Of a DNA stretch of 64,000 nt, positions 3,163 through 60,579 are shown in pieces. Where the stretch lies: the NCBI GenBank assembly GCA_016194335.1, contig JACQBR010000001.1, forward strand, positions 19,460 to 83,459, read 5' to 3'. The position numbers and the translations under genes were made by a program. How positions within the stretch are numbered: the first letter of the stretch is position 1; each line of letters begins with the position of its first letter. The notes below the pieces were generated by a model. That model worked only from the letters and a program-made list of their open reading frames with translations, had not been told where the DNA came from and did no database searches. This DNA comes from Candidatus Micrarchaeota archaeon (GTDB taxonomy: Archaea; Micrarchaeota; Micrarchaeia; Norongarragalinales; UBA97).

Positions 3163-6100
3163 ATGGTCGGCGAGTCGGTTGTGAAGAGCGAGGGCGGCAA
3201 GCGCAGGCTTGTGATCAACTACAAGGGCAGTCCCTACGGGGCGGACATTGCGCAGTATCCCCAGGTGATGAAGGACGTTGTCGAGCGCCTGCAGATTGCC
3301 GACGTTAACGAGGTCGTGCTTTCGGAGTATTACGAGCGGATTTACGGCGAGGAGCAGACGCGCTACCTCAAGCAGATTGCGGACTTGATTTCGCGCCTGG
3401 AAAGCGACGCGGTGTGGAGCCCGAGCCACCTCGGCCTTTCCACGCAGACCAAGACCATCGCCCCTCGGCACGACGCGGTCCTCAACGTCCTGAACAACCT
3501 GCGTTCCGACCCTTTCAAGGCATACCTCTCCCTCCTTTCTGAAGTGAAGGCAGCCACCGCCCAATTTTCGGCTCTCTCGGGCGAGGACGCGGAGGACTTG
3601 CAGGTTTACCTCAAGACGCTTGAGTTCATGCGCTCTGAAGTTGAGAAGCTCGATCTTGTCAAGGCCATGCGCCAGTATGTCACGCAGCTGGGCAGGCTTC
3701 CGGCCGACCGGGGGATTTACCAGTCGTTTTTCGAGGTTTCCATCAAGCCCAGCTTCATCGGCTCGCGCATCTTCTTCACCGGAACTGAAAACCTCGAGCT
3801 TGTAGACCAGTATTCCGTGCTGGGGAGCAAGGTCTACATCTACAAGCACCCCGACAAGGTGGAATGCCTCTACTTCATCAACCCGCCCGAATACACACTT
3901 TCTCCCGAAAAATATTTTCTCCTTGAGAAGACCAAGGAAGTAGTCGCCGGCCACCGGCCCACGGGTGAGGGCGCGAGCTTTTTTGACATCGGTCAGGCGC
4001 GGCAATATTTCCACAAGATTTACGTAGCCACCATTTCCGACCTCGCGGCTAAAAACAAGATTTCCCTCACTGTGGAGGAGAAGGAGGAGCTTGCGGCAAT
4101 CGTCTCGCGCTACACAATCGGCTATGGCGTGATGGAAGTCCTGCTTTCCGACAGGCAGCTCACCGACGTTTACGTCGACGCGCCCCTTGGGGTAAAGCCG
4201 ATTTACCTCGTGCACGGCAAGTACGGCCAGTGCCAGACGAACATCGTCTTTTCCGACGAGGAGGCGCGCTCGCTCGTCTCGCGCTTCCGCGCTCTTTCCG
4301 GAAGGCCTTTTGACGAGGCGCACCCCATCCTCGACTTCGACCTCGAGGACCTCCAGACGCGCATCGCCGTCATCGGCAAGCCGCTTTCCCTTGACGGGAT
4401 TGCATTCGCATTCCGCCTTCACAAGGAACAGCCTTGGACCCTGCCCCAATTCCTGGACGCGAAAATGATGACGCCCACTGCCGCGGGGCTCTTCTCGTTC
4501 TTCGTTGACGCTCAGGCGAGCATGCTCATAGTCGGCTCGAGAGGCTCTGGAAAAACCAGTCTGCTCCAGTCGCTCATGCAGGAGATTCCGCAGAATTTGA
4601 GGCTGATTGTGCAAGAAGACACGCAAGAACTCCCAATTCCCGCCCTCAAGCGCCTCGGGTTCAACATACAGAGAATGAAAACAAGGCCGCCGCTTGGAAA
4701 GCAGAGCGAGGCGGAAGTAAGCGCCGAGGACGCGTTGCGCACCGCGTTGCGCCTTGGTGACAGCGTGCTCATCGTCGGGGAAGTGCGCAGTTCAATCCGC
4801 GGCGACCAGGAAGTTCTTGTTATCGAGAATGGAATGACCAAGCGCATTCCGATAAGGGAGCTTGAAGGGAAGAACGTGGAGACTTTCAAGGTGCCCACAC
4901 TCGGTTTTGACCTCAGGTGCAAAGTTTCAGCGCTTTCCGGATTCGTGAAGCATCCCGAACGCAGCAAGCTGGTGGAAATCACTACGAAGACCGGAAGGAA
5001 GGTTACCGTAACGCACGACCACTCCCTCTTCACTTCGACTCGGGATTTCAAGGTAGCGGCAATCGAATGCAAGGATCTCAGAGAAGGAGATCAATTGGTG
5101 ATTCCGTCAACAATCCCCTGCGGGTTCAACGACGTGGAGTTCATCAACGTCTTTGACATGCTGCCGGAATTCAGGGTGCAGAATTTCGAGGAACCGATGA
5201 GGCGGGCTATTGCGAAAACAGGCTGGCGCGAGGCAACTAGAGTTGCGGAGGTCAAAACTGGCGACATCTACAATTATTACCGGACCAACCAAAAGTCATA
5301 TCCGACCCTCGCCCAGTTTTCCAGCGTAATGCAGCTTGCCGGTGAGAAAATCGATTTCGGGCACCTGCAAGTAAGGCGCGGGTCGAGCAATCCGATTCCG
5401 GCAATAATTCCCGTCGATGAGGATTTCTGCAAGTTTTTAGGTTACTACGTCTCTGAAGGATATTACCGCCGCGAGAAAAAAGGAGGGGGCGCCGTCGTCC
5501 TCACCAATTCCAACGAAGTTCTTCTTGCGGACATGAAGGGGATGTCGCGCTTCGTTTTTGACGTTGAGCCTTTGGAACGCGAAGTGCACGGCGCAGGCAC
5601 CAGCACTCAAGTCCAAATCAACAGCGCGCCTCTCATTGCCCTCGTGGAAAGACTCGGCGGGGGTAGGATATGCACGCAAAAGCGGGTGCCGCCGTTGATA
5701 TTCGGCCTGAGCAAGCCTAAGATTGCCGCATTCCTGCGGGCGCTTTACAGTGGAGACGGCAACATCACCACAAGCTTGCGGTCTGGCAATGCCATCAGTT
5801 ATTTCACCACCTCGCAAAAACTCGCCGAGGACGTGGCGTATCTCCTTATGGTTTTCGGGATAGTCGCGAGAATAAATTCCCGCCAGCCAAAGGTTGGCAA
5901 CAGGCTATGGGTTGTGGAGTTCAAAGACCGCCAGATGGTGGAGCGGTTCATGTCCGAAATAGGGTTCGTGCAGAAAAACAAGCCGTTGGTTAAGATGGCT
6001 TGGGCGCACACCCGGTCGAGCACGGTGTATTTCGAGAAAGACGCGCTTAGAAAGCATCTTACTAAATATCCCAGGGAGCACCGCCACCTTTTCCGCTCCC

Positions 6101-6951
6101 TTAGGTGCAGCAAGAACTATCTGAAAAGGGTGGCGAACGACCCGCGCTGCGAAGTTTCTGACGAGCTCAAGCTTTTCGCAAATGGGGAGTTCTACCTCGA
6201 TGAAATCATAGGCGTGAAGGAAATAGAGCTTGAGGCACCCGAGCCGGTTTACGACCTTAGCGTCTCGCCCTCGCAGAATTTCATAGGCGGTTTTGGCGGA
6301 ATCCTCCTTCACAACACCGAGGCCAAGGCTCTCTATGAGGCCATGCGCGTCGGCGCGGTTGGCAACGTGGTGATGGGGACGATTCACGGCGAGAGCGCGT
6401 ATAGCATCTGGGACAGGGTCGTCAACGACCTCGGCGTGCCCACGACTTCATTCAAGGCAACCGACTTCGCCATCGTCGGCGCGCCCATCCGCTTCAAGGG
6501 CAGCCTCAAGCGCAACCGCCGCATCATCGAAGTTACGGAAGTGAAGAAGCACTGGGAGAAAGACCCGGGGGCGGAGAACGGCTTTTTGCAGTGGATGCAG
6601 TTCGACGCCGAGAAGGACGCGCTGGAGTTTCTTGACGACAACCTCCGCCAGAGCGAGTGGGTGCAGCGCGTGCGCAAAATCCGCGGCCTCACCATCGAGG
6701 AGATTCTCGGCGAGGTGAATGCGCGCTCTGCGGCAAAACAATTCCTTGTCGACGCGGCCCGCGAGCATTCCGTCCCCAACTTCCTCGAGGCGACCTACAC
6801 CATCCGCGCGCACAACAAGTACCTGCTCTTCGAGGAGAGGCAGCGAGAGGAGTTCGGAAGCGTGGACTTCAAGGAACTGATGGAATCGTACCGGCAGTGG
6901 GTTTCCTCAACCCTTTTGCGCGAGGCGATTGCACAGAAGAGTTCGGGTTAG
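3163..6951 (+). CDS. type II/IV secretion-family (PilB/FlaI/TadA-like) pilus assembly ATPase, intein-containing precursor
   Basis: 1262-aa ORF; Walker A GSRGSGKTS; conserved box LIVGEVR...TEAKALYEAMRVG...GTIHG split by an intein; long (~480 aa) N-terminal domain; followed by platform membrane protein and pilins. Confidence 0.85.
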   Translation: MVGESVVKSEGGKRRLVINYKGSPYGADIAQYPQVMKDVVERLQIADVNEVVLSEYYERIYGEEQTRYLKQIADLISRLESDAVWSPSHLGLSTQTKTIAPRHDAVLNVLNNLRSDPFKAYLSLLSEVKAATAQFSALSGEDAEDLQVYLKTLEFMRSEVEKLDLVKAMRQYVTQLGRLPADRGIYQSFFEVSIKPSFIGSRIFFTGTENLELVDQYSVLGSKVYIYKHPDKVECLYFINPPEYTLSPEKYFLLEKTKEVVAGHRPTGEGASFFDIGQARQYFHKIYVATISDLAAKNKISLTVEEKEELAAIVSRYTIGYGVMEVLLSDRQLTDVYVDAPLGVKPIYLVHGKYGQCQTNIVFSDEEARSLVSRFRALSGRPFDEAHPILDFDLEDLQTRIAVIGKPLSLDGIAFAFRLHKEQPWTLPQFLDAKMMTPTAAGLFSFFVDAQASMLIVGSRGSGKTSLLQSLMQEIPQNLRLIVQEDTQELPIPALKRLGFNIQRMKTRPPLGKQSEAEVSAEDALRTALRLGDSVLIVGEVRSSIRGDQEVLVIENGMTKRIPIRELEGKNVETFKVPTLGFDLRCKVSALSGFVKHPERSKLVEITTKTGRKVTVTHDHSLFTSTRDFKVAAIECKDLREGDQLVIPSTIPCGFNDVEFINVFDMLPEFRVQNFEEPMRRAIAKTGWREATRVAEVKTGDIYNYYRTNQKSYPTLAQFSSVMQLAGEKIDFGHLQVRRGSSNPIPAIIPVDEDFCKFLGYYVSEGYYRREKKGGGAVVLTNSNEVLLADMKGMSRFVFDVEPLEREVHGAGTSTQVQINSAPLIALVERLGGGRICTQKRVPPLIFGLSKPKIAAFLRALYSGDGNITTSLRSGNAISYFTTSQKLAEDVAYLLMVFGIVARINSRQPKVGNRLWVVEFKDRQMVERFMSEIGFVQKNKPLVKMAWAHTRSSTVYFEKDALRKHLTKYPREHRHLFRSLRCSKNYLKRVANDPRCEVSDELKLFANGEFYLDEIIGVKEIELEAPEPVYDLSVSPSQNFIGGFGGILLHNTEAKALYEAMRVGAVGNVVMGTIHGESAYSIWDRVVNDLGVPTTSFKATDFAIVGAPIRFKGSLKRNRRIIEVTEVKKHWEKDPGAENGFLQWMQFDAEKDALEFLDDNLRQSEWVQRVRKIRGLTIEEILGEVNARSAAKQFLVDAAREHSVPNFLEATYTIRAHNKYLLFEERQREEFGSVDFKELMESYRQWVSSTLLREAIAQKSSG
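4792..6315 (+). other. intein (~508 aa) with LAGLIDADG homing endonuclease domain, inside the ATPase gene
   Basis: Block A SIRGDQEVLVIENG..IRELEG, block B TVTHDHSLFT, LAGLIDADG motifs LGYYVSEGYY and LRALYSGDGNI, block G VYDLSVSPSQNFIGGFGGILLHN + Thr(+1); boundaries approx +/-1 codon. Confidence 0.8.
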
Positions 6952-17429: not shown

Positions 17430-17495
17430 CCATCCGTGATTTGCTCTCAAATCCGCTTGTTATTTAAATTCCGCGATGCTATTCTAAACCTTAGG

Positions 17496-20400
17496 ATGCG
17501 CCCTGCCCACTTCACGGTTTTCGTCTTCATCCTCCTAGCCGCGGAAATCGTTTCTCCCTTCGCTTTTGCCCAGCAATCCCCCTCTCCGACGGAGAGTTCG
17601 CGTTCCATCCCAATAGCTTCGAGCTTTCCCGCCTCACCGCCCCAAGACGCGCAAGGCGCTTCCCCCTTCACGGGCCTTCAGGTGGCGGGCCAAGCGGGAG
17701 GCTCAAGCGGGTTAACCTCAAGCGGCGCAGCATCTTCCGGCGTACCATCGACTTCCTCTTCATCAGCCCCAGCTTCCGCCATTCCCCCCTCAACCGCGCC
17801 AGTCCAAGTCGGCGCTTGCGTGATTAGCGAACTCACCCCCCAGCAGTCGCTCAACTTCCTCAATGCCGTGAGCGGATTCACGGGAAAGGAAGTTACCGAC
17901 CGCAGCGACGCCTCCCTGCGCAAGAACGCAACCACGAGCCCCACGCAAATCGTGAATGTCTACAACTTTCCCGTAGAGGACAGTGCGAGCTTCATGAAGC
18001 TGGGCCAACTTGCCCAAATCACCGGCAGGGGCGCAAAGGAACTTGCCGACGAGCTGGGCGTGGATGACGATAAGGACGCCGACGGCAAGGTGACAACGCC
18101 TGCCGCGGATAAGGAAGTCACCGTCGCGCAGGCAAGCGCGCTCGTGCAGAAGGACCCCAAGCTCTCCGGCCTGTTGGGGCAAATCCGCGCGGCGGCGCAG
18201 ACGAAAAAAAACGTCGCCACCGGCCCGGGTTTTGAGGACCTCAAAGTCACTCTCCCAAACGGGAAGGAAGTGCAGCTTTCCGAGATGTTCAAGCTTCAGA
18301 AGCTGCGCGCCAGCCCGGGGCAGAAAAACTCCTGCCTTGTCGACAACGCCGACATCCGCGGCAAACTCACCTACAACGCGCTGCTGGACAAGAGCTTAAT
18401 CATGGGAGCTCTCAAGTCCAACCTGAGTTCGGATGAATACGACAACTCCAACACCGACCATTTGGGCACTGATTACATCCGGGCGGGCATCAACAGTTAC
18501 GACGGCAACATCGTAATTCCGCACGAATACGAGCGTGCAGTGATGGAAATGGGTTCATGGGTAGGTTGGGACATCATTCTCTCCTCCGCACTTGCAATAG
18601 GCTCATTTTACGACGTGAAATTCGCGGAGAAAAACCTCGCGAACACCGAAAAGCAGATTGAGGCCAGCAAGGAGACGGCAGACACGTTCAGGTACATCCT
18701 CAGCCAGCAGGGAAGCAGGACGCCCACGGGCGACGCTATAGGCCAGCGCATCAGGCAGGCTTACGGCCGGGCGGGAATCGGAAACCTCGCAAGGATGACC
18801 GAGGGAGAGGTGACTGAAATCAAGGCGCCGATCAAGGCGTTTCTTGAAGATAAGCTAGCCACGGGGGCTGGAAAGACCGAACTCGCAACGCTTTTTGAAT
18901 CGAAGGGATGGGACAAGAGCAAAATAGAGGCCGTAACTGCCGGTTCGGCTTCACCTTCGGAAATTGAGGAATTAAGCAAGGAAGTTTCTGGCAACATCGC
19001 GGGCCAGAAAGACATCGCATCGCAAGTGAGTTCGATTTACGATTTCGTGCCGAAAAAAAGCGCGGTGGAAGGGCTCACAAAGCAGGTCAGCAATATCGAC
19101 GAGTCGCTGGTGGAACTGGGTTCTTCCACCGTGAACAAGCTTTCTCTTGAAAACAAGCTGAAGGCAAGCGGTATGGAAGAGCAGGTGAAATCCGTTTTTG
19201 GCAAGCCGACCATTTCCGACGCTATTACGGAGGCACTTAGCGCCCCTGCGGAAACCGGCAAGCTGGAGAAGCTGCTTAAGGACGGCAGGCTTGAAACGCA
19301 AAACCGCATTTCATTTCTGGACCAATACGGCATTTCTTCGGGCGAGGAGGCAATCCAGTCCAAGCTCGGAAAGCAGGCGGGGCTTGAGGACGCGCAGGCG
19401 CGGCTGCAGAGCGAGCAGGCGATTGCGGAGAAGGCATTTTCACTGGGCAAGCGGCGCGCGTGGACCAACATCGTGATGGGCACGCTCTGGCTTGGTCCGG
19501 GCAGGCTGGGGCTCGAGTTGGCTGGCGTGATTACGCTCTCAAGCGTCGGGAAGCCGTCGGAGCGCACGGGCGATTACCTGAAGATTTTTGCCAACAGCAA
19601 GCCCGCCGAGGCGTTCAGGAAGGGCACGGACGTTCTTCTCATCGGCCATTTTCTTGAAACCATTTCCAACTTCCTTCCAATCACCGCGCCTTCCAAAGTC
19701 TATCAGATGGATGACGTGGTTTTCACCCAAGTGCCCGGCGATACCGGCAAGGAGACCCAAGCTTTCACCTCCATACGGCAAGTCCAAGGAGATTGGAATG
19801 TCAACACCAACTGGCCCGGCGATTCAACCTCAACCGCATTTGAGGACGTGCGGGACGGCAAGGCCGTGACTACGATGGCGGTTGCGACCAACAACCTCGC
19901 AATCGGAGGGACATTCAAGCGCAAGGCGGAAGGGACGGAGTATTACAAGAGCCTCCTTTACATCGCGCCGCTTTTGGGCTGGCGGCTGCTTGGGGACAAG
20001 ACCGCCGAAATCAGGGGCTTGCAGACTATTCTTCAGATTGAGGGGCTGCAGTATTACATAGAGAAAATCGTCGACCCGTCCGCGTTTAGCGGCAAGGACG
20101 CATGTTCTGACGAGCAGCTTGACTCTTACGTCAACGGTTTCAAGGCTGCCACTACCGCCACAATTGCGGAGCAGGTGATTTTCTTCTCGCCATTCTCGCC
20201 CGAATTCGCGCCTGTTGTAACATTACTCAAGACCATAGGTCCCATCAATGCAGTTTCGAAAAGCTGGCCGGGGTTGGCGCTTTCAAAAGCCGGCACCATT
20301 TATTCAAGGGTGGGTCCGTTTGTCGACCCGTTCGAGGCGTGGAAGCAGACCGCGCAGTCGCGCGTGTACAACTACGCCCTCAATTGCAAAGACTCCGCCT

Positions 20401-22811
20401 ACAAGATTCTCTCCTATCAGAACATCCCCCAAAAGAGCGCGAAGGCCAACGTGCTGCAGTCCATCCAGAAGAAGGTATCCGACCCTCTCGGCGTTCCGCA
20501 AATCACAAAGAGCCTCAACATCGGCGAGGCGTTCAAGGGCATCGGGGCGCAGGTGAGGGCAAAGGACCTCAAGGAAATCCTCAATGTCAAGGTGCTCCTG
20601 CAAAACCAGAACGGCCTCCTGCGGCCGTCGGAGCTTTACTACCTCCACCTCGACCCGGAGGGTGCTGACATGCAGTGGTGGGGCGTGTTTGAAAACCAGT
20701 GCTTCCGGCGCTGCCAGGTGCAGGCGGACGGCACGTTCATCTGCGCGGACAACACCGGGGTGTACCGCGAGAAGGACGGCAAGCGCGAATACCTCACCGA
20801 CAGCGACCACGCCCTGTTTTCGCAGCTGATTCCGGGATTGGGCCAGGTCATTCCCAACAAGATCATTTCAACGCCGCTTTCCTGCGGGGCCAAGCCCGTC
20901 TTTGCCGCAAGCGGGGACGGCAAGTTCAAAATCATTCCCGGAGGGTGCACCGCAACCGAGTGCGCCATCAGGGCGCTTTCAATCGTGAGCGGGCAGAACG
21001 TTGGGAATGATTTGGACAAGGTGCTCGGCCCCACGCAGGCCATCCACACCACGCAGGGCACTGCGGTGATTGCAGACGGGGGCATTCGGTTCTTCAGGAC
21101 AACGGGCGTGAAGGTGAGCGAGCGCAACACCGTTCTGGGCTATATCCCGACAATAGGCTCCAAAGACGCTATTAACGGAGAGCAGCAGAAGGCGAACGCA
21201 AGCGGCTTTTACCAACAGCAGCAGAGCCTCGCGGGGAGGGAATACCGGTTTTCAACACTTGAGTTTCTCGGCGACGGAACGGTTCGCGTGGCGGGCAGCG
21301 ACAAGCCCGAAGAGCAGTTCGGCGAGCTTCTCACCGTCCAGTCGCAAAATGCCGTGATGCACTTCGACCGCGCCACCCGCAGGCTCGTGATCGGGCTGCA
21401 GCTTTTTGCCGACCCCGTGGCGGCGCACGACATTACCGGCATCGCCACTTCCGCCGCGACGGTCACGGGAGGAAAGTCCGACCTCCTCGCGCTCGAGCGC
21501 CAGCTTGCCGACCTCAATTCCAAACTCGCGTCGGGACAGCAGCTGAATGCCCAGCAGCTTGAACTTCTCCGCAAATCAATTGAGAAAAACTCCGCCCCGG
21601 CGCAGGCGGGCTTCACGCAGGCTGAAAGGGATTTGCTCAAGCAGGCGCTTGCCGACAAGAACGCGGGCAAGCCGCTTTCGCAAGCGGAGGCGGACATCGT
21701 CACCAAATCACAGCAACAGCAGCCCTACCCCGGCGTGATCATCGTGTCCCTGCCTTCTGCCGAAAAGATTGACAAGGCCGCTTCCGACGCAGGAGTGGGC
21801 GATTCCGTCAAGGGAGCGACGAACAAAATGCGCGACAGCCTGCCCGTCAGCGTTGATGACAAGAACGCCGTGAACGCCGCGCTGGACAAGGCGGTTGCGG
21901 CGAACAAACTTACGGCAGCAGACGCCGCCCAGCTTAAGACTCAAGTGCAGCAGGCAGTCCCTCCCGCGGAAAAGGCGCGGGAAATCACCGCCGCAATCGC
22001 ATCGGGCGCCGACCTCACTCCCGAGCGGAAGCTGCTTGCGCAGCAGGCGGTTGCGCAGGAGAAGGCGTCGGTGGGCCAGCAGGCCGCCACCGCCACTGGC
22101 GGCCAGATTCCCGCAATCCAGTTGGGCGGCGTGACGAGCAAGGTCGGCGCGGAGCAGAGTGCACAGGGCCTCAACCGCGCTCTTGAGAAACTCGGCGGGC
22201 TTACTCAATTCGATTCCGAAAACAGGCGCGTTGTGATTGTTGACGACGGAAAGGGCGGCGCGGTGGTGCGGGTGACGGACAAGACCGGTGCAACGTCCGC
22301 GCAGGAACTCAAGGTCACGGGCGCGCCCACAAAAGACGCCAACGGCGCGGTTTCGATTCCCACGGACAAGGGGCCGGTGAGCATTGCGGTGAACGTCAAT
22401 CCTTCAACGGGCCAGCCTGTGTTCAACCTCAACGGCCCCGGCGGCATCAGCGCACCCGCCACGCCACTCATCTTCGCGCAGGGGCCGAATGGCTACCTGT
22501 GGTTCGACCCCAAGACGGGCACTTGGCGCACGGGCAACGGCATGGTAATTCCCGACGACCCGAATTTCGGCAAGAACGGCATCAGCTTTTACGGCGGCCA
22601 GGACGGCACGACGGGGCTTGCGGACCAGAACCGGTTTGCCAACCCGCGCCAGCAGCAAATCAGCCCCTACGCCAGCAACAACCCCCTCCTCTCACTGCCA
22701 AGCGTGCCGGATTACGGGAGGGAGCCGCTTGCTGCAATGGCGATGCTCATCGCGCTGCTGTTGGGAGTGGCGTTCGTGCGCTCAAGGGAAGTTTCACCAA
22801 AAGGTATTTAG
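17496..22811 (+). CDS. giant (~1770 aa) secreted surface protein with N-terminal signal peptide and C-terminal transmembrane anchor
   Basis: Signal peptide MRPAHFTVFVFILLAAEIVSPFAFAQQ; S/A/Q-rich and helical repeat regions; Cys-containing segments; C-terminus ..EPLAAMAMLIALLLGVAFVRSRE hydrophobic anchor + basic tail. Confidence 0.7.
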   Translation: MRPAHFTVFVFILLAAEIVSPFAFAQQSPSPTESSRSIPIASSFPASPPQDAQGASPFTGLQVAGQAGGSSGLTSSGAASSGVPSTSSSSAPASAIPPSTAPVQVGACVISELTPQQSLNFLNAVSGFTGKEVTDRSDASLRKNATTSPTQIVNVYNFPVEDSASFMKLGQLAQITGRGAKELADELGVDDDKDADGKVTTPAADKEVTVAQASALVQKDPKLSGLLGQIRAAAQTKKNVATGPGFEDLKVTLPNGKEVQLSEMFKLQKLRASPGQKNSCLVDNADIRGKLTYNALLDKSLIMGALKSNLSSDEYDNSNTDHLGTDYIRAGINSYDGNIVIPHEYERAVMEMGSWVGWDIILSSALAIGSFYDVKFAEKNLANTEKQIEASKETADTFRYILSQQGSRTPTGDAIGQRIRQAYGRAGIGNLARMTEGEVTEIKAPIKAFLEDKLATGAGKTELATLFESKGWDKSKIEAVTAGSASPSEIEELSKEVSGNIAGQKDIASQVSSIYDFVPKKSAVEGLTKQVSNIDESLVELGSSTVNKLSLENKLKASGMEEQVKSVFGKPTISDAITEALSAPAETGKLEKLLKDGRLETQNRISFLDQYGISSGEEAIQSKLGKQAGLEDAQARLQSEQAIAEKAFSLGKRRAWTNIVMGTLWLGPGRLGLELAGVITLSSVGKPSERTGDYLKIFANSKPAEAFRKGTDVLLIGHFLETISNFLPITAPSKVYQMDDVVFTQVPGDTGKETQAFTSIRQVQGDWNVNTNWPGDSTSTAFEDVRDGKAVTTMAVATNNLAIGGTFKRKAEGTEYYKSLLYIAPLLGWRLLGDKTAEIRGLQTILQIEGLQYYIEKIVDPSAFSGKDACSDEQLDSYVNGFKAATTATIAEQVIFFSPFSPEFAPVVTLLKTIGPINAVSKSWPGLALSKAGTIYSRVGPFVDPFEAWKQTAQSRVYNYALNCKDSAYKILSYQNIPQKSAKANVLQSIQKKVSDPLGVPQITKSLNIGEAFKGIGAQVRAKDLKEILNVKVLLQNQNGLLRPSELYYLHLDPEGADMQWWGVFENQCFRRCQVQADGTFICADNTGVYREKDGKREYLTDSDHALFSQLIPGLGQVIPNKIISTPLSCGAKPVFAASGDGKFKIIPGGCTATECAIRALSIVSGQNVGNDLDKVLGPTQAIHTTQGTAVIADGGIRFFRTTGVKVSERNTVLGYIPTIGSKDAINGEQQKANASGFYQQQQSLAGREYRFSTLEFLGDGTVRVAGSDKPEEQFGELLTVQSQNAVMHFDRATRRLVIGLQLFADPVAAHDITGIATSAATVTGGKSDLLALERQLADLNSKLASGQQLNAQQLELLRKSIEKNSAPAQAGFTQAERDLLKQALADKNAGKPLSQAEADIVTKSQQQQPYPGVIIVSLPSAEKIDKAASDAGVGDSVKGATNKMRDSLPVSVDDKNAVNAALDKAVAANKLTAADAAQLKTQVQQAVPPAEKAREITAAIASGADLTPERKLLAQQAVAQEKASVGQQAATATGGQIPAIQLGGVTSKVGAEQSAQGLNRALEKLGGLTQFDSENRRVVIVDDGKGGAVVRVTDKTGATSAQELKVTGAPTKDANGAVSIPTDKGPVSIAVNVNPSTGQPVFNLNGPGGISAPATPLIFAQGPNGYLWFDPKTGTWRTGNGMVIPDDPNFGKNGISFYGGQDGTTGLADQNRFANPRQQQISPYASNNPLLSLPSVPDYGREPLAAMAMLIALLLGVAFVRSREVSPKGI

Positions 22812-22871: not shown

Positions 22872-25145
22872 ATGGCCGAAGGAACTTTTTCCCGCATGAA
22901 AAGCTGGTGGAAGGGCATCATCCTGGGCAATGTCGTCACCTCAAACTGGCGGCGCTATGTAGCCGACCCTTGGCGACGGGGGTTGTGGTATCTTGGTGCG
23001 ACGAGGCTGGGCACGACGGGCAAGTGGGACGCGGGCGAGATGGTGATGCGAGGCGGCATGTGGTACCGTTTTCACTACAACCAGGCGGCAGCTTTCCATG
23101 CGTACAGACAAGTGGGCGAAGGCGGGAGTGCGATGGGGATTAATATGTCCTTCCCCACGGCTGGCAATCCCAACAGCAACCTGGTGATGGTCCCCGCCCA
23201 GAGGCCGCATTTCCTGGCGTGGATGTGGATGGCGATGTTCAACCGTAATGCACTCCAGCCAATTGGCATCCAGGCGCCCAACTGGACGCCCGGGGACATC
23301 ATGCGCTATTTCCGCGAATGGCGCTACTACGGTTACACGCCCGCTGCGGACATTCCCAACGAATTGCGTGGGCTTTACCTTGACGGCGTGGGGCTCAGCT
23401 ACGGAAAGACAAAGGAGGAGGCCGCCGGGGATTTGGGCAAGTGGCTCACCGACCCGGCCGGCCAGACCGTTTCACTCCAGTTCCTCAAGGAAATCTTCGT
23501 AAAGCGGTTCAGGGCCAACGGCGTTTTCGCAATCACTTCCGACATCCTCGCGGACGCCCTGAGCAAGCACACGATTTACGACGACGACGTTGTAGGCGGG
23601 GGCTACACGGAGGACGGTTCGTATGTGGAGCCGCCGGTAAAGTCGCGTTTCGTTCCGGGAAGTGGATTTGCCGGCTACCCGCAGGGAGAGCCGGTTTCCC
23701 GCTCCCAGCAAGAATTGAGGGACGAGTTCAACCGCGTGAGGACCCGTTGCGATGAAATCACCAAGCAAATGGCAAAGATGGGCAAGGACTTTGAAAACAA
23801 CCGCGCGGCCCTGGAAAAGCTCGACGATAAGGAAAGACTGATTGATGAAGAGGAGGAGTTCAAAAAGAAGACTTTGGAACTTGCCCGCGAGAAGGCGGAC
23901 TTGGTGCGGGGTTTCAAGGAAAAGCGCGACGCGGCCTGTGCCACGTCCCGCGCAAGGCTATACCAGCTGGACGAGCTTTCCCCCGAGCAGGTAATCAAGC
24001 TTTACAACTATTTTCTCGAGAACACCATGCTTGACGCGCGCCGGGAGCTGAACAAGGAAGAGGAGTACAACGATTATCTCTTCCAGAAATACCTTGGGGG
24101 AAAGAAGATTGGTGACGTTTACGAGTTTGCAGTCCACGGCCTCACTGGCGCGGCCACGCTCGAATCCCACAATCTCCCCCTCGGGAAATGGCGGGGGATG
24201 CGCAACCTCATGCGCAACAGCATGGGAATCGTCGGGTTCGGCTGGCAGAACCTTCCCGCCGAGGTGGGCGGGAATGCGAAAATCGAATTTGCCATGGGCC
24301 GGGACTTCTGGCCCACTCTCACGCCGGTTTACATGAGCAAGGCGCGGCGCTTTCTCGCAACGCTTAACGAGAAGGACGGCCGCATAACCGACTGGGCCAT
24401 CAAGTCAGGCTGGGACGTGGCGAGCGTGCTGGAGTGGTACCGCCAGTCGATAAAGGGCAACGGCTACCGCTGGCTGCGCAAGGGGATTCTCGACGACTAC
24501 CAGGACATTGCGGCGAAGTTTGCCGACATCATGGGCGTGCCCGACATGGTCACCGACATCCAGCTTAACCTGCACACCTACTCAAACCACGATTCAGGAG
24601 AGGAGTGGGACGCCATGCGCCGCTCGCTTGCCGCATTCAAGGGGGACTTGGAGCTTACCCTGCCTCAATACGTGATTGAGGGATATCCCGGTGGCGGGTC
24701 GAGATACATCGCAAAGCGCCTAACCAAGCGGTTCAACCTCATGCAGAGCGCCGTTGCAATGCTGGCGCAGATGCAGAAGTCGGCAGATCAGGAGAAAAAG
24801 TTCGACGCGATGAAGTTGCTTATGACGCAGGACTTGCAGGCAACAAAAAGGGAGGACCTCGACATGATTGAGCGGGAGGCCGCGGCGCGGGGCGGTAGCA
24901 CGCGGGAAAGGAACAAGTTCAAAGCGCATTTGGAGGCAATGTATAGCCGGCACTGGCTTTCAAAGGATGAAACTGGAGTGAATCCGGAAGATCAGGCATC
25001 CCAGATGATAGCGCTTGTGGAGCGGTACCGCGACCTTTGGAAGCTCTTCGCACTTCCCGCCCTTCACGCCGACTTCCTCACTCCCGGAGGGGAGATTCCC
25101 TACGCGACTGCCGCAAAGCGCGGCCAGCCCATGCCCCACAATTGA
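22872..25145 (+). CDS. hypothetical protein (757 aa), Trp/aromatic-rich N-domain and central coiled coil
   Basis: Long ORF 60 nt after giant gene; no recognisable catalytic motifs; heptad-like charged stretch (residues ~270-400). Confidence 0.55.
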   Translation: MAEGTFSRMKSWWKGIILGNVVTSNWRRYVADPWRRGLWYLGATRLGTTGKWDAGEMVMRGGMWYRFHYNQAAAFHAYRQVGEGGSAMGINMSFPTAGNPNSNLVMVPAQRPHFLAWMWMAMFNRNALQPIGIQAPNWTPGDIMRYFREWRYYGYTPAADIPNELRGLYLDGVGLSYGKTKEEAAGDLGKWLTDPAGQTVSLQFLKEIFVKRFRANGVFAITSDILADALSKHTIYDDDVVGGGYTEDGSYVEPPVKSRFVPGSGFAGYPQGEPVSRSQQELRDEFNRVRTRCDEITKQMAKMGKDFENNRAALEKLDDKERLIDEEEEFKKKTLELAREKADLVRGFKEKRDAACATSRARLYQLDELSPEQVIKLYNYFLENTMLDARRELNKEEEYNDYLFQKYLGGKKIGDVYEFAVHGLTGAATLESHNLPLGKWRGMRNLMRNSMGIVGFGWQNLPAEVGGNAKIEFAMGRDFWPTLTPVYMSKARRFLATLNEKDGRITDWAIKSGWDVASVLEWYRQSIKGNGYRWLRKGILDDYQDIAAKFADIMGVPDMVTDIQLNLHTYSNHDSGEEWDAMRRSLAAFKGDLELTLPQYVIEGYPGGGSRYIAKRLTKRFNLMQSAVAMLAQMQKSADQEKKFDAMKLLMTQDLQATKREDLDMIEREAAARGGSTRERNKFKAHLEAMYSRHWLSKDETGVNPEDQASQMIALVERYRDLWKLFALPALHADFLTPGGEIPYATAAKRGQPMPHN

Positions 25146-28007: not shown

Positions 28008-28325
28008 CCTTCCGCCTTAGTTTTGTTGTCCCTTATCTTCTCAATGGGCGAAGCCTCTGCATTTGCACGGGAGCGGCTTGGGCAATGTGAAATCTTTTGA
28101 GGGTTCCCATTGCACTATGCACTTCGGGGGGCATTCTTCCTCCCTCTTGCGCCAACCCCGCATCAAAAGTTTCCACGTGCCCCAAGTGCTCTCTAAATGT
28201 CGCGTAGCAGTTCGCCTATCTTTTATGGCAGCCCCTTGCAAGCCTTATGATTGCCAAATCTGAAGTTCCTCTTGTACCGGCCATTCAAATCACCGCAGTA
28301 ATTTTTGGGGGCTTTGAAAAAACAG

Positions 28326-28397
28326 AGCCTCGGACGAGAATCGGACTCGCAACCTCCTGCTTACCATGCAGGCGCTCTGCCACTGAGCTACCGAGGC
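28326..28397 (-). tRNA. tRNA-Thr (anticodon GGU)
   Basis: Reverse complement GCCUCGG-UA-GCUCAGUGGCAGAGC-G-CCUGC-AUGGUAA-GCAGG-AGGUU-GCGAG-UCCGAUU-CUCGU-CCGAGGC-U folds as cloverleaf; T-loop has unusual U54-C55. Confidence 0.65.
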
Positions 28398-29384: not shown

Positions 29385-30674
29385 ATGGATTTTGTGAATG
29401 AAGCACTTCTGCAGAATCCGCATTGGGAGAATGGAGTTCTGGAGTTCCCCCGCTTGGCCGGGCCGCTGGTTGAGCGGGACATCTTCCCCTCAGTGGCCAG
29501 GAGCGTTTCAAGGAAATTCATAACCATCCTGCGCGGCCTGCGGCGGGTGGGCAAGTCGGTTCTGGCAAGGCAGGTTGCTTTCCGGAAAATCAAGGCATCA
29601 GGCAACCCCACGGACGTAGCCTGGTTTGAGTTTGACCGGGCAATGGGCGCAAAGCCTGAGGACATGGACCTCCTGCTGAATTTTTTCCGTTCAAGAGGCG
29701 CCTCGATGGTGATTCTGGACGAGATTGCATTCGTCCCGAAATGGCAGGACGTGCTCAAGCGGCACTATGACCGCACAGACACCAAGTTCCTCGCAACCGG
29801 AAGTTCCGCAATCGACTTGGACAGGAGGACCGCAGAGAGCCTGGCCGGGAGGACGGAGACGGTTGAAGTGCGGCCCTTCTCAATTTCCGAACGGATGAGG
29901 CTTGTGGGGGAAATCCCTCCGAGTTCGCCGCTTGAGTTATCACGCCAAAGGGCGGAGATGCTTTCGCAAGCAGGCCAATATCTCGTTTGCGGGGGGTTGC
30001 CCGAAATAACTTCCGACGCCGACTTCACCCAGCGGCAGGCTTATGTCAAAAATTCCCTGCTCGACCCCCTGTTTTACAAGGATTTCCCTGCTGCATTCCC
30101 CCAAGCAAATCCCGACCTTCTGCGCAAGACTTTGGAGCTGCTCTCCGGGACTTCTGGAGGCACCTTCCAGCTTCAAAGCATTGCGGAAGCGCTTGGCTGC
30201 AGCCACACCACTGCTGGAACGCAGCTGGAGCTCTTGGAAAAAACCCTACTGGTAAGGACTTTATACAATTCCACCCCCTCGATAGCTAAGCAAAAGCGCA
30301 CGGCAAAGAAAATAGTGTTTGCCGACAATGGCATTCTTGCAGCCCTTAACCCGGAACTCCCTCCCGGCGTTCTTGCGGAAAACGCGGCACTGGAGGCACT
30401 CGGGTCAAAGTTGTTCTGGCGCGACGGCGAAGGCAGGGAGATTGACGCGATCCTTCCCGAGTCCAAAACCGCCGTTGAAGTTAAGTACCAAAACAGCCTC
30501 ACCACCCGGGATGAAAAAAACATTGGCTATTTTCTCGAGAGAAAACGCGGATGGCGGGGGGTGTTGATAACCAAAAGTGATTCGGATTCGGGCGACATTG
30601 CGCGCGTCCCGCTATGGCGGGTTTTGCTCAACCCGGATTTAATCGCACGCCACTTTTCCCGGATAAAATCGTAA
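29385..30674 (+). CDS. AAA+ superfamily ATPase with DUF4143 (COG1373)
   Basis: Walker A GLRRVGKS; 429 aa typical of archaeal COG1373 ATPases. Confidence 0.7.
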   Translation: MDFVNEALLQNPHWENGVLEFPRLAGPLVERDIFPSVARSVSRKFITILRGLRRVGKSVLARQVAFRKIKASGNPTDVAWFEFDRAMGAKPEDMDLLLNFFRSRGASMVILDEIAFVPKWQDVLKRHYDRTDTKFLATGSSAIDLDRRTAESLAGRTETVEVRPFSISERMRLVGEIPPSSPLELSRQRAEMLSQAGQYLVCGGLPEITSDADFTQRQAYVKNSLLDPLFYKDFPAAFPQANPDLLRKTLELLSGTSGGTFQLQSIAEALGCSHTTAGTQLELLEKTLLVRTLYNSTPSIAKQKRTAKKIVFADNGILAALNPELPPGVLAENAALEALGSKLFWRDGEGREIDAILPESKTAVEVKYQNSLTTRDEKNIGYFLERKRGWRGVLITKSDSDSGDIARVPLWRVLLNPDLIARHFSRIKS

Positions 30675-31433: not shown

Positions 31434-31586
31434 ATGGGCAAGTTTCCTATAGCGGACAAGGCCGTGCTCAAGATGCGCATCTGCCTCAAGTGCAAGGCGC
31501 GCAACCCCCCTGGCGCAACCAGCTGCCGCAAGTGCAACTACGGCTACTTACGGCCCAAGAAGGCAAGGAAGAAGGAAACGAAGTAA
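31434..31586 (+). CDS. rpl40e: 50S ribosomal protein L40e
   Basis: Manually found 50-aa ORF MGKFPIADKAVLKMRICLKCKARNPPGATSCRKCNYGYLRPKKARKKETK; C4 zinc ribbon of L40e; below ORF-track size cutoff. Confidence 0.8.
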   Translation: MGKFPIADKAVLKMRICLKCKARNPPGATSCRKCNYGYLRPKKARKKETK

Positions 31587-31647
31587 TTTCCCCCCGTCTT
31601 CTCCCACCTTTTTATTAAAACCATCAGTGCAAACGCTATTGAAAATT

Positions 31648-31825
31648 GCAGGAGTGGCAGAGCCTGGAAAATGCGGGGGCCTTAAGAGCCCCTCCCTCAG
31701 GGGTTCGCCGGTCCAAACAAACCTTTTCTTTCTTTGCTCGTCGGCGTTGCGACGCCTCCTCGTCAAAGAAAGAAAAGCTTTGATGGAAAAGAAAGAAACG
31801 GTTTTAGGGAATCCGGCCTCCTGCA
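31648..31825 (+). tRNA. tRNA-Leu (anticodon UAA) with ~94-nt intron in the T-loop (position 59/60)
   Basis: GCAGGAG-UG-GCAG-AGCCUGGAAAA-UGC-G-GGGGC-CUUAAGA-GCCCC-long variable arm-GCCGG-UCCAAA[intron 31718..31811]U-CCGGC-CUCCUGC-A; acceptor stem perfect 7 bp. Confidence 0.6.
31718..31811 (+). repeat. hairpin repeat element (CTTTTCTTTCTTT...AAAGAAAGAAAAG) forming the tRNA-Leu(UAA) intron; second copy at 53603..53710
   Basis: ~80% identity over ~90 nt between the two loci incl. 13-14 bp perfect inverted repeat and trailing GGAAAAGAAAGAA motif. Confidence 0.55.
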
Positions 31826-31854
31826 CTTTTTTTTAGGTTCTCCAAGTTGGAAAG

Positions 31855-33195
31855 TCAGCTTTCAAGAAGCCATTTCCATAGGGGAGTGAACGTTATCAAC
31901 GTGTATTTCTCCTTTAGTTCTTTCTCTTCATCCCAAGTAAGTATAGTTCCTTTCTTTAAATTGAGTTCTTGCATCCCTCTGCGCAAGGCTTCCAGTTCGC
32001 GCTGTAGCGTAAAAGGGTTGGAAGCGTCGTGGCAAACTTGGATTAGTTGCGTGGGCTTCCCTTTCTCAAGCGCCACGAAGTCGACTTCCCTGCCGGAGTG
32101 GTCTTTCCAATAGCAGAATTCGCCCGTCCCTTCAAGCGAACTGCGGCGCAGCAGTTCCACCGCAACGAGCGTTTCGATCAGCCGGCCTTTTCCGCTTGAC
32201 GAAAGGGGGGCTATTGAGGAGACGAGCCCGGAATCTATGCAGTAAACCTTCTTTGGCGCCATCAGCTGCTCCTTAAGCTTGTATGAAAACCGCTTTACCA
32301 TGAAGATCAGAAACGCGTTTTCAAGGTATGAGGCGTATTTCTTGACTGTGTGTGCGCTCTCCAGCCCCAACACATTCCTGAGTTTATTGAAGCTGACTTC
32401 GAGTCCGGAGTTGGACACGAGCAGTCTTGCAAGGTCCTTGAGTGCTTGGGGGCGCTTCGGCCTGAATCTTGAGAGAATGTCCTTCTGAAGAACGTCCGAA
32501 TAGAGCGAGAGGTGGAAACCCGGCTCGCCCTTGTACGCCAGCGGGTAGCCGCCTTCAATGAGGTACCGTTCGAGAAAAGACTTTGTTTTGGCTATGGATG
32601 AGGTAAGGTTGGAATCAGGCGAATGCCCGCGGTAATTCAGGTACTCCCCAAACGAAAACGGGAAGACGCGTACGTCGGTGTGGCGACCTGTAAGATACGT
32701 TGCAAGCTCGCCGCTAAGCAGGTTGGAATTGGAGCCGGTGATGATTACTTTCCTGTTTTGTGAGATTCTCGAGATGAACCGCTCCCAACCGGCAATGTTC
32801 TGGATTTCATCAAAGACCCACGCTTGAGCATGCGGGTAAAGCGACAGGAACGCTTCAGCCACGCTGTTGAGTTCCCTACCATCCAGACTTACTCGCTCGT
32901 CGTCGAAATTGATGTACGCATGCGGCTTGTCTTTCACGCATAAAAGGCAGAATGTGGTTTTGCCAGCCCGCCGTGGGCCGGTGACGACGGTAATCAAATC
33001 AGTTTGGGGATTGCAGGAAATGCGTTCCCGCGGCACAATTCGGCCTGAAGAAAGCCTTGATTCGTATTGTTCACGCTGGTCGGCAATAATGCGCTTGAGC
33101 TCCCGGCTTTCCATGCAAAAATTACCCCGCCCAACAATATAAATGTTTGCGTTCCAAATGCATAGTTTTGGCAAATATCTGCATTTGAAATGCAT
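31855..33195 (-). CDS. AAA+ superfamily ATPase with DUF4143 (COG1373), paralog
   Basis: Walker A TGPRRAGKTT; 446 aa; same architecture as 29385..30674. Confidence 0.7.
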   Translation of the reverse strand: MHFKCRYLPKLCIWNANIYIVGRGNFCMESRELKRIIADQREQYESRLSSGRIVPRERISCNPQTDLITVVTGPRRAGKTTFCLLCVKDKPHAYINFDDERVSLDGRELNSVAEAFLSLYPHAQAWVFDEIQNIAGWERFISRISQNRKVIITGSNSNLLSGELATYLTGRHTDVRVFPFSFGEYLNYRGHSPDSNLTSSIAKTKSFLERYLIEGGYPLAYKGEPGFHLSLYSDVLQKDILSRFRPKRPQALKDLARLLVSNSGLEVSFNKLRNVLGLESAHTVKKYASYLENAFLIFMVKRFSYKLKEQLMAPKKVYCIDSGLVSSIAPLSSSGKGRLIETLVAVELLRRSSLEGTGEFCYWKDHSGREVDFVALEKGKPTQLIQVCHDASNPFTLQRELEALRRGMQELNLKKGTILTWDEEKELKEKYTLITFTPLWKWLLES

Positions 33196-53602: not shown

Positions 53603-53710
53603 AGCCCTTTTCTTTCTTTAGCTCCTCGCGCTTTACGGCGCTTCGTCGCGTAAAGAAAGAAAAGCCCTTGGGGAAAAGAAAGAATAAAAAAGAAAGAAAC
53701 TCCTTTCCCC
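53603..53710 (+). repeat. second copy of hairpin repeat element (CTTTTCTTTCTTT..AAAGAAAGAAAAG) immediately after secY stop; possible terminator
   Basis: Homologous to tRNA-Leu(UAA) intron 31718..31811; perfect 13-bp inverted repeat flanking GC-rich inner stem. Confidence 0.55.
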
Positions 53711-55809: not shown

Positions 55810-56742
55810 ATGCCGCTTACCGTCCTGCACAAGGGAAAGTACGAATTTGGAGTTGCTCCGTCACAGCGTAGCTTGGACGCTCTTTTCGGGTACGGCGTGG
55901 CGCTTGTTGACAAGCCAAAGGGCCCGTCAAGCCACGAGGTTTCAAGCTTCGTGAGAAAAATGCTGGGCATCAAAAAGGCGGGCCACTCCGGGACGCTGGA
56001 CCCCGAGGTGAGCGGAGTGCTTCCCGTGCTTCTGCAGAACAGCTGCAAGCTCGCGCCGCTCCTTATGGGAAGCGTGAAGGAATACGTTTGCGTCATGGAC
56101 TGCGCCAAGGAATTTTCAAGGGAGGAGCTTGACGCCGCGCTTGAGAATTTCAGGGGGAAAATCTTCCAGACCCCGCCGCTTGCAAGCGCCGTTGCCAAGA
56201 GGCTGCGCGTCCGAACCGTCTACAAGCTCGAGATTCTCGAGGTGCGGGGAAGAAGCGTGCTTTTCCACTCGCGCGTGCAGGGCGGGACCTACATCCGCAA
56301 GCTCGTTGAGGACGCGGGCAGGGTGCTTGGCGCCGGCACGACGATGGCCGACTTGCGCCGCACGCTCGCGGCGGGGATTGCGGAAAAGGACTGCGTTACC
56401 CTCCAGGAGCTCAGCGACCGCCTCTGGCTCGCACGCGAGCAGGGGAATGAAAAGCCCATCCGCGAGTGCGTGAGGCCCATTGAGGAAGTGGTGAAGGTCA
56501 AGCGCGTAGTTGTCGGCGACGGGATGCTCGTCCCGCTTTCAAGCGGCTCGAACCTCGCCTGCGGCGGGGTGGACGCGCTTGACGGGAAGATTGGGGCGGG
56601 CGATGTCGTGGGAATCTTCACCGGAAAAGGCGAGTTGCACTCCATCGCGCGCGCGTCGCTTGGCACGAATGAAATTGCGGAAAAGAAGAACGAGAGGGAA
56701 ATGGCGTTTGACGTGATGCGGGTTGTGCAAAGCGTGAAGTGA
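55810..56742 (+). CDS. cbf5: tRNA/rRNA pseudouridine synthase Cbf5 (TruB family with PUA)
   Basis: GHSGTLDPEVSGVLPVLL TruB catalytic Asp motif; 310 aa. Confidence 0.85.
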   Translation: MPLTVLHKGKYEFGVAPSQRSLDALFGYGVALVDKPKGPSSHEVSSFVRKMLGIKKAGHSGTLDPEVSGVLPVLLQNSCKLAPLLMGSVKEYVCVMDCAKEFSREELDAALENFRGKIFQTPPLASAVAKRLRVRTVYKLEILEVRGRSVLFHSRVQGGTYIRKLVEDAGRVLGAGTTMADLRRTLAAGIAEKDCVTLQELSDRLWLAREQGNEKPIRECVRPIEEVVKVKRVVVGDGMLVPLSSGSNLACGGVDALDGKIGAGDVVGIFTGKGELHSIARASLGTNEIAEKKNEREMAFDVMRVVQSVK

Positions 56743-60387: not shown

Positions 60388-60579
60388 GTGGGGGTGGCAG
60401 AGCCTGGTCAAAACCCTTTTCGAAAGAAAAGGGAAACAAGCAACGCATGACAAGGTCGCCCTCAAAACCCGCAAACGGGTTCCAACAGAGCGCCTGTAAT
60501 TTGCTTTTCGTTGGCCAAATGCGCAGGATTGAGGCTCCTGTTCCTTAGGGATGCCTGGGTTCAAATCCCAGCCCCCACA
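60388..60579 (+). tRNA. tRNA-Leu (anticodon GAG) with ~106-nt non-canonical intron in the D-loop (approx 60413..60518)
   Basis: GUGGGGG-UG-GCAG-AGCCUGGUCAAA[intron]A-UGC-G-CAGGA-UUGAGGC-UCCUG-UUCCUUAGGGAUGC-CUGGG-UUCAAAU-CCCAG-CCCCCAC-A. Confidence 0.6.

Follow-up and report, generated by a model that had tools for sequence, protein, structure and literature searches.

A probable bulge-helix-bulge intron at position 59/60 of a Micrarchaeota tRNA-Leu(UAA) gene contains a copy of a dispersed element

The stretch analysed here, hereafter the window, comprises 64,000 nucleotides (nt) of Candidatus Micrarchaeota DNA (assembly GCA_016194335.1, contig JACQBR010000001.1, positions 19,460 to 83,459 of the forward strand). 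At 31648-31825 (+), it carries a split class II tRNA-Leu gene with the anticodon UAA. Our results make it probable that this gene is functional and that its 94-nt insert, placed at position 59/60 in the T-loop, is an intron that would be spliced by proteins at a motif of the bulge-helix-bulge (BHB) type, as predicted from the sequence. The intron is composite: a conserved dispersed element of ~80 nt is followed by ~12 locus-specific nt, which build the splice motif.

The 5′ exon (31648-31717, +; tRNA positions 1-59) was delimited by the cloverleaf that ARAGORN drew after in-silico splicing and by the match to orthologues. It runs through the acceptor strand GCAGGAG, the D arm, the anticodon arm GGGGC-CUUAAGA-GCCCC, a long variable arm and the T-stem strand GCCGG, and ends at 31717 in the T-loop bases U54 C55 C56 A57 A58 A59. 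The 3′ exon (31812-31825, +) supplies U60, CCGGC, the acceptor strand CUCCUGC, which perfectly complements GCAGGAG, and the discriminator A73, while CCA is not encoded. The 13-mer TCCGGCCTCCTGC has a single exact occurrence in the whole window and, by our own arithmetic, the chance of meeting it exactly within 200 nt downstream is ~3e-6. Neither ARAGORN nor the Rfam tRNA model called the unspliced locus. When 31718-31811 (+) was deleted, the remaining 84-nt sequence was called as tRNA-Leu(taa) by ARAGORN, with 7/7 acceptor, 5/5 anticodon-stem and 5/5 T-stem pairs in addition to A73, and its sole deviation from the conserved and identity nucleotides was C55 in place of U55. The precursor folded more stably than shuffled sequences (z = -4.1), and in its minimum free energy (MFE) structure both the acceptor stem and the T-stem were present, while the insert made up a long rod.

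What 37/38 is to the anticodon arm, 59/60 is structurally to the T-arm: each site lies in a 7-nt loop on a 5-bp stem. In the register applied for 59/60, the 3′ bulge is made of the last two intron nt plus nt 60, the 5′ bulge of nt 58 and 59 plus intron nt 1, and the 4-bp central helix of nt 54-57 with intron positions N-5 to N-2. Accordingly placed, the 5′ half of the motif (31712-31718, +) consists of U54 C55 C56 A57 (31712-31715) and the bulge A58 A59↓C (31716-31718; the arrow marks the predicted cut, here after 31717). The 3′ half begins with an inner part (31800-31805, +), formed by the inner-helix strand GGUUU (31800-31804) and U31805, and continues with an outer part (31806-31812, +), formed by the central strand A GGG (31806-31809) and the bulge AA↓U60 (31810-31812), cut after 31811. 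The outer helix (h) is complete (5/5), whereas the central helix (H) has three of its four pairs (U·G, C-G and C-G, then A opposite A). The inner helix (h′) can be drawn as AAA/UUU or, at a 1-nt offset, as AAACC/GGUUU with 11 further pairs. The MFE fold independently recovered the T-stem, the short helix and the inner helix of this register. By our rough estimate, at least 3/4 H pairs together with three adjacent h′ pairs would be found in ~1% of random sequences.

Three further tRNA genes from DPANN archaea could be laid out at 59/60 in the same way (contigs and loci used for comparison are labelled L with a number). A genome scan provided tRNA-Leu(UAA) of L005 (Woesearchaeota; 3′ bulge AU↓U, 5′ bulge AA↓C) and of L024 (Micrarchaeia; AA↓U and AA↓C), and a metagenome scan provided tRNA-Ser(GGA) of L104 (AU↓U and AA↓A); all of them had h 5/5 and H 4/4, with one G·U pair in L104. 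These three introns put A opposite U55, whereas the window puts G31808 opposite C55, a compensatory difference that supports the central helix. Because AA is repeated at both junctions, cuts at 57/58, 58/59 and 59/60 would all give the mature T-loop UCCAAAU, and it is solely the BHB register that favours 59/60. The window intron departs from the strict hBHBh′ form (3-nt bulges, exactly 4 bp) in that H has 3/4 pairs and the stable h′ lies 1 nt out of register. It does agree with the relaxed motifs (hBH, HBh′ or variable bulges) as described in PMC3239211, since it combines an outer helix, a 3-nt 3′ bulge, a 3-bp helix, an internal loop holding the 5′ site and a long inner helix. A first-pass annotation, made from the letters of the window, had proposed a tRNA-Leu(UAA) interrupted at 59/60 by ~94 nt that fold into a long hairpin. 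Its identity is borne out by the clean class II call once the insert is removed, its length by the restored cloverleaf, its hairpin by the rod and z score of the precursor, and its position by the BHB register, though 57/58 and 58/59 give the same product. Of the BHB motif by which it had meant the junctions to be judged, both 3-nt bulges were found in register, but the helix, with three pairs and an A-A mismatch, is that of a relaxed form.

The gene starts 61 nt downstream of the gene for ribosomal protein L40e (31434-31586, +; Pfam PF01020), which served as synteny anchor. The order L40e to tRNA-Leu(UAA) was kept in nine related contigs (L012, L025, L031, L036, L037, L040, L042, L043 and L044), and the T-loop was uninterrupted in all nine. 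In L043 and L044, the T-arm GCCGG-TTCAAAT-CCGGC differed from that of the spliced window gene at position 55 alone. A closer relative with the same intron was not found, every syntenic orthologue being without a T-loop intron. Among 5.8 billion proteins, an identical L40e carries the NCBI label Candidatus Micrarchaeota, a DPANN lineage, in agreement with the earlier proposal that the intron position was a clue to the lineage; the next-best L40e was 76% identical, which indicates that the lineage is fairly isolated. The codon UUA accounts for 7 of 507 Leu codons and is present in the genes for L40e, L32e, S4, RpoD and NAD synthase, so that a tRNA with the anticodon UAA is needed. The surroundings are those of an ordinary core chromosome, encoding LeuRS, NAD synthase, NMNAT, L40e, TrmI, the L3-to-SecY operon, Cbf5, S13, S4 and RpoD. 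Upstream of the tRNA gene, a TATA-like box, TTTTTATTAAAA (31609-31620, +), lies ~28-39 nt from tRNA nt 1 and is a putative archaeal promoter; both the window gene and most of its syntenic orthologues have a box of the TTTAT type (TTTAT/TTAAT) at a distance of 27-45 nt. Downstream, a run of eight T (T8; 31827-31834, +) is a putative terminator, oligo-T runs serving as archaeal terminators. Synteny, the uninterrupted T-loops of the relatives, the core-chromosome surroundings, the upstream box and the use of UUA together indicate that the locus is the orthologue of a working gene and that the intron was gained in this lineage. As a separate observation, in four loci from named DPANN genomes (L008, L016, L025 and L026) the 3′ end of tRNA-Leu(UAA), with T-arm and acceptor strand, was partly duplicated 90-160 nt downstream of the gene; these duplicates look like att-type repeats from integrating elements.

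On these grounds, transcription would start from the TATA-like box ~30 nt upstream and end at the T8 run. In the precursor, the T-stem would form normally, U54-C55-C56 would pair with GGG near the intron 3′ end, and A58-A59-C and A-A-U60 would bulge on opposite strands, while the rest of the intron would build a long helix (AAACC/GGUUU, then UUUCUUUCUUU/AAAGAAAGAAA). Such a fold would be a relaxed T-arm equivalent of the anticodon-arm 37/38 substrate. A splicing endonuclease of broad specificity, perhaps of the epsilon2 type by analogy with ARMAN-2, would cut both bulges, and an RtcB-type RNA ligase would join the exons into an 84-nt tRNA with the T-loop UCCAAAU, to which CCA would be added later. 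Precedents come from ARMAN-2 (Candidatus Micrarchaeum acidiphilum), also a member of Micrarchaeota, in which 56% of the tRNA genes are disrupted (Fujishima et al. 2011, PMC3239211). Its pre-tRNA-Cys(GCA) has a 13-nt intron at 59/60 with a relaxed hBH motif, its pre-tRNA-Pro(GGG) has introns at 53/54 and 59/60, and its epsilon2 endonuclease, a three-unit enzyme, was shown to cut the relaxed 59/60 substrate in vitro (PMC3239211). Reviews count 59/60 among the recurrent non-canonical intron sites (PMC4090602), and relaxed substrates have been linked to endonucleases with lineage-specific loops (PMC12397907).

A second split gene, tRNA-Leu(GAG), was located at 60388-60579 (+), with exons at 60388-60411 and 60519-60579 separated by a 107-nt intron in the D-loop. 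Its junction is ambiguous between 19/20 and 22/23, CAAA being repeated, and 21/22 fits the BHB register, with a weak h, AA↓A in both bulges and a complete central helix (GGUC/GGCC, 4/4). From this clean 3-4-3 core, the genome evidently relies on non-canonical splicing. The tRNA-Leu(GAG) intron opens with a hairpin, CCCUUUUC-GAAA-GAAAAGGG, that resembles the element in the tRNA-Leu(UAA) intron. A T-arm scan of the window revealed no further tRNAs, and two of the four window tRNA genes are therefore split at non-canonical sites and missed by both ARAGORN and the Rfam tRNA model. The replacement of U55 by C55 is shared by tRNA-Leu(UAA) (31713; UCCAAAU) and the tRNA-Thr(GGU) gene (28325-28397, -; UCCGAUU). 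The window also encodes a pseudouridine synthase of the Cbf5/TruB family (55810-56742).

The 94 nt of the tRNA-Leu(UAA) intron consist of a C, a copy of the dispersed element (31719-31799, +) and the 12 locus-specific nt GGUUUUAGGGAA. The element copy is built, in this order and on the + strand, from block 1 (CTTTTCTTTC, 31723-31732), a GC-rich hairpin specific to this genome (31743-31756), block 2 (GAAAGAAAAG, 31768-31777) and block 3 (GGAAAAGAAAG, 31785-31795). The tail GGUUUUAGGGAA pairs both with AAACC at the 5′ end of the element and with UCC of the T-loop, and the 3′ bulge comes from it as well; a short terminal tail that complements the 5′ exon of the respective gene is likewise seen in other intronic copies. 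In the orthologue of L036, whose L40e is 76% identical, we found a 50-nt intron at the canonical position 37/38 (L036 1452-1501; ENA ERZ21828344, contig-100_4326). Its BHB has h 6/6, a 3′ bulge AU↓A, a central helix of 2/4 pairs, a 5′ bulge AG↓A and an inner helix that is perfect over 8 bp (8/8). About 41 nt of this intron are collinear with the 59/60 intron of the window through the blocks AAA[C/G]CTTTTCTTTC, GAAAGAAAA[G/C]CT and TGGAAAAGAAAG. The alignment gave z = 6.3, its score was reached by 0 of 1000 dinucleotide shuffles and the reversed control stayed at background; nine other DPANN introns showed no similarity, save a weaker match at the start of the 37/38 intron of L024.

Within the window, CTTTTCTTTC occurs six times against 0.5 expected, and a second full copy of the element (53603-53700, +) is intergenic and begins immediately behind the stop codon of secY (SecY assigned by Pfam). 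This copy is ~78% identical to the intronic one, the GC-rich central hairpin included. Such a hairpin was seen only in copies of this genome, and its presence in both window copies argues for a duplication within this genome. The upstream similarity at the 53.6-kb copy falls inside the coding end of secY, and the copy itself holds two units like block 3 (53671-53684 and 53687-53700). The idea that the 53.6-kb copy and the tRNA are att sites of a 22-kb integrated element was rejected, the interval being TrmI, tRNA-Thr and the L3...L30-SecY ribosomal operon.

A scan of metagenomes, whose search pattern prescribed blocks 2 and 3 and left block 1 and the genomic or tRNA context free, returned 93 stretches, ~30 of which (~20 distinct) also had block 1 in place. 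Nearly all copies with block 1 in place were in or beside tRNA genes, the carriers including tRNAs for Leu, Pro, Ser, Trp and Thr. Copies were placed in the D-loop (L103, L130 Leu(CAG) and L131 Thr(CGU)), at 37/38 (L089 Leu(GAG) and L128), at 53/54 (L054/L063/L096 Pro(UGG)), at 59/60 (L104, the tRNA-Ser(GGA) gene mentioned above) and in the region of the T-arm (L069, tRNA-Trp). Similar introns thus occur at different positions in different tRNA genes, as in a family of transposed introns. The ARAGORN grid of in-silico deletions used for these placements was permissive and noisy, and the anticodons of L052, L101 and L119 are uncertain. Other copies directly followed the discriminator of intact tRNA-Glu and tRNA-Met genes (L061 and L115) or 5′ fragments of tRNA-Pro (L079 and L117). 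In the latter two loci, the fragment is ~33 nt long, the element comes directly after it and a complete tRNA-Pro lies ~60 nt further downstream; the fragment could be a partial duplication, a half of a split tRNA or a decayed gene. The remaining copies were in spacers, often with tandem GGAAAAGAAAGAAC-like units behind them, as in L045/L087/L110, L082, L125 and L070, where up to about six imperfect units follow the spacer element. L082 and L087 have two element copies apiece, ~1.2 kb apart.

The core of the family reads AA(A)SCUUUUCUUUC - loop - GAAAGAAAAS CUU(0-4) GGAAAAGAAAG, and two subfamilies can be told apart, AAACC…AAAAGCTTTNATGG, which includes the window, and AAAGC…AAAACCTTGG. The carrier contigs range from 32 to 60% GC, and the element is nearly unchanged across them. 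The RecJ-like protein of L117 is 72-74% identical to proteins labelled Altiarchaeota at NCBI, which places the element in at least two phyla. When the 31 named DPANN genome loci were searched with an nhmmer profile built from 19 members, no additional copies came up, and no named relatives were found for the low-GC carrier L131. A viral origin was considered and rejected, as the seven IMG/VR matches were without block 1, Lys/Glu-rich and coding-like, that is, chance matches. A limited literature search turned up no description of such an element, which is no proof of novelty. In L012 (Micrarchaeota MEGAHIT-group-0.651, ~1300-1370), the 3′ end of another tRNA (…CCCCCTGCA) precedes a related hairpin, CTTTTCTTTT-AGT-AAAAGAAAAG; such T-rich hairpins may be common in the tRNA 3′ trailers of the phylum and might serve as terminators.

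The blocks of the element resemble inverted repeats, block 1 against blocks 2 and 3, and block 3 mirrors block 2. Two mutually exclusive hairpins can therefore be drawn: the intronic copy folds block 1 with block 3, and the intergenic copy folds block 1 with block 2. Being mirror images, the purine blocks might allow either of these hairpins, or a triplex, to form, which might relate to the spread of the element or to a function in the handling of pre-tRNAs. For the intron, we set aside the reading of blocks 2 and 3 as a triplex or mirror repeat, which is topologically incompatible with the simultaneous pairing of the intron ends. Covariation was also sought in the flanks of blocks 1 and 3; the extensions amounted to 1-5 bp and in most members did not exceed those of shuffled flanks, so that support for the outer helix comes solely from thermodynamics and the window copy. 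On landing in a tRNA gene where a BHB can form or evolve, the element may generate an intron. Alternatively, it may colonise places that tolerate extra RNA, such as existing introns, trailers and spacers. Since both readings fit, orthologous genes that carry the element at 37/38 and at 59/60 may have acquired it by independent insertions rather than by the move of one intron. Flanking direct repeats, for which no systematic test was made, were noticed in L061 (GGGAGC) and near 53.6 kb (CTCCT), with none in L115 or the window intron, and no transposase was linked to the element copies. We give an even chance to the broader view that these copies form an undescribed cross-phylum family of ~45-100-nt elements in archaea of the DPANN type (Micrarchaeota and Altiarchaeota-like), residing in the discarded parts of pre-tRNAs and creating or colonising BHB introns.

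Several observations weigh against a functional gene with a protein-spliced intron. The central helix contains the A-A mismatch, the most stable inner helix is 1 nt off the strict register, and the strict alpha4/alpha′2 enzymes are not expected to cut such a relaxed substrate (PMC3239211). A Pfam scan of 39 open reading frames (ORFs) of the window found neither EndA nor RtcB, though the second non-canonical intron of the window and the precedent of ARMAN-2 hint indirectly that the host has enzymes able to process such sites. Two T4 runs inside the intron could cause some premature termination, and C55 stands in place of a near-universal U55. Besides, the element also exists outside any tRNA, at 53603-53700, so its presence alone is no proof of splicing. 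The last two points would also suit a pseudogene inactivated when a small repeat, either palindromic or similar to a miniature inverted-repeat transposable element, inserted into its T-loop, while another gene or tRNA decodes UUA/UUG: the insert is a copy of a repeat found in an intergenic spacer, other copies of the repeat sit in 3′ trailers and spacers, pairing in the central BHB helix is imperfect, and U55 was present in all of the ~37 other DPANN tRNA-Leu(UAA) genes fetched. We nevertheless regard this reading, the main rival, as unlikely. The exons are free of defects and sit at the syntenic site with a TATA-like box and a T8 terminator, essential genes use UUA codons, and the locus-specific 3′ tail fits a 59/60 BHB exactly, down to the G opposite C55. 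Moreover, C55 is also carried by the uninterrupted tRNA-Thr(GGU) of the window and must therefore be tolerated by the organism, and most members of the family sit where the removal of the element restores a tRNA.

If the insert is a real intron, it could still be cut elsewhere, at 56/57 (giving the T-loop UCCGAAU) or in a block 1:2 fold with a bulge-helix-loop motif. The AA at both junctions makes the products of 57/58 to 59/60 indistinguishable, GGGAAUCC also permits UCC↓GAAU, the element has its two exclusive hairpins, and the 59/60 intron of ARMAN-2 tRNA-Cys is of the hBH (bulge-helix-loop) type (PMC3239211). Set against this, orthologues have A57 (UUCAAAU), only at 59/60 do both cuts fall in 3-nt bulges four pairs apart, and L005, L024 and L104 fit that register perfectly, which renders another cut improbable. 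An artefact of assembly (a chimera) or a self-splicing group I or II intron would explain why the standard tRNA finders fail on the locus, and nothing else speaks for either. A 274-nt region was 100% identical in an NCBI metagenome-assembled genome (MAG; GCA_016212415.1, contig JACRGI010000042.1) and in three separate Logan assemblies; this identity rules out an assembly artefact and leaves no covariation to be obtained. For a group I or II ribozyme, 94 nt are far too short, and a permissive Rfam scan of the locus yielded only sub-threshold matches to generic hairpins, with no ribozyme or intron family among them. The probability left to an artefact or to self-splicing is accordingly negligible. 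A C/D box sRNA within the intron was rejected as well, there being no CUGA in the intron and no Rfam family.

Other features of the window were recorded alongside. An ORF of 1262 aa at 3163-6951 (+) encodes a type II/IV secretion (pilus) ATPase that is interrupted by an intein, which itself holds a LAGLIDADG homing-endonuclease domain (Pfam Intein_splicing and LAGLIDADG_3). Two adjacent ORFs of 1791 and 757 aa (17436-22811 and 22872-25145, +) had zero Pfam matches. Paralogous AAA_14/DUF4143 ATPase genes (29385-30674, +, and 31855-33195, -) flank the NMNAT-L40e-tRNA-Leu block. Inside the RpoD ORF, TCCGGCCCCCTGC (59918-59930, +) differs at one position from the tRNA-Leu 3′ end and equals that of L024, probably by chance.

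Among known systems, the 59/60 introns of ARMAN-2 (PMC3239211) are the closest, sharing with the window gene the phylum, the T-loop position and a relaxed BHB that needs an endonuclease of broad specificity; the split tRNA genes of ARMAN-2 are likewise missed by standard tRNA finders. The window gene differs from them in the tRNA concerned, Leu(UAA), in an intron of 94 instead of 13 nt that is built from a dispersed element, and in a host from a neutral-pH groundwater lineage with 57% GC and an L40e at most 76% identical to any other. With the canonical archaeal 37/38 hBHBh′ motif, the window intron has in common that four loop bases pair with the intron 3′ end and that the cuts fall two nt into 3-nt bulges, but it lies in the T-arm and its central helix has 3 bp plus a mismatch. 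The occurrence of one element at differing positions and in differing tRNAs recalls the transposed introns of Thermoproteales, as far as these are summarised in PMC4090602 and PMC3218864 (Sugahara 2008; Fujishima 2010). Judged by the same summaries, the present family differs in its hosts, which are Micrarchaeota and an Altiarchaeota-like contig rather than Crenarchaeota, and in that its members also occur outside introns: in 3′ trailers of tRNAs, behind 5′ fragments of tRNAs and in the spacer that follows secY. In the model derived from Caldiarchaeum, by which introns are gained when mobile elements integrate or recombine at tRNA genes (Sugahara 2012, PMC3293823), tRNA disruption, tRNA 5′ fragments and repeated DNA are associated, as in L079 and L117; the element of that model is 1.8 kb long and encodes a recombinase, whereas ours is ~45-100 nt, non-coding and without a linked recombinase.

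Introns at 59/60 were already known in Micrarchaeota, and the dispersed element shared across phyla may be the part that is new. Counts of tRNAs and claims of missing tRNAs for MAGs of Micrarchaeota and other DPANN lineages would be wrong unless split-aware tools are used. The continuous gene of close relatives at the same syntenic site points to a lineage-specific gain of the intron, which can be dated by comparison. The pairing of C55 with a G of the intron suggests that a core position of the tRNA and its intron have been co-adapted. Finally, the element family offers a concrete set of sequences with which the origin and movement of archaeal BHB introns can be tested.

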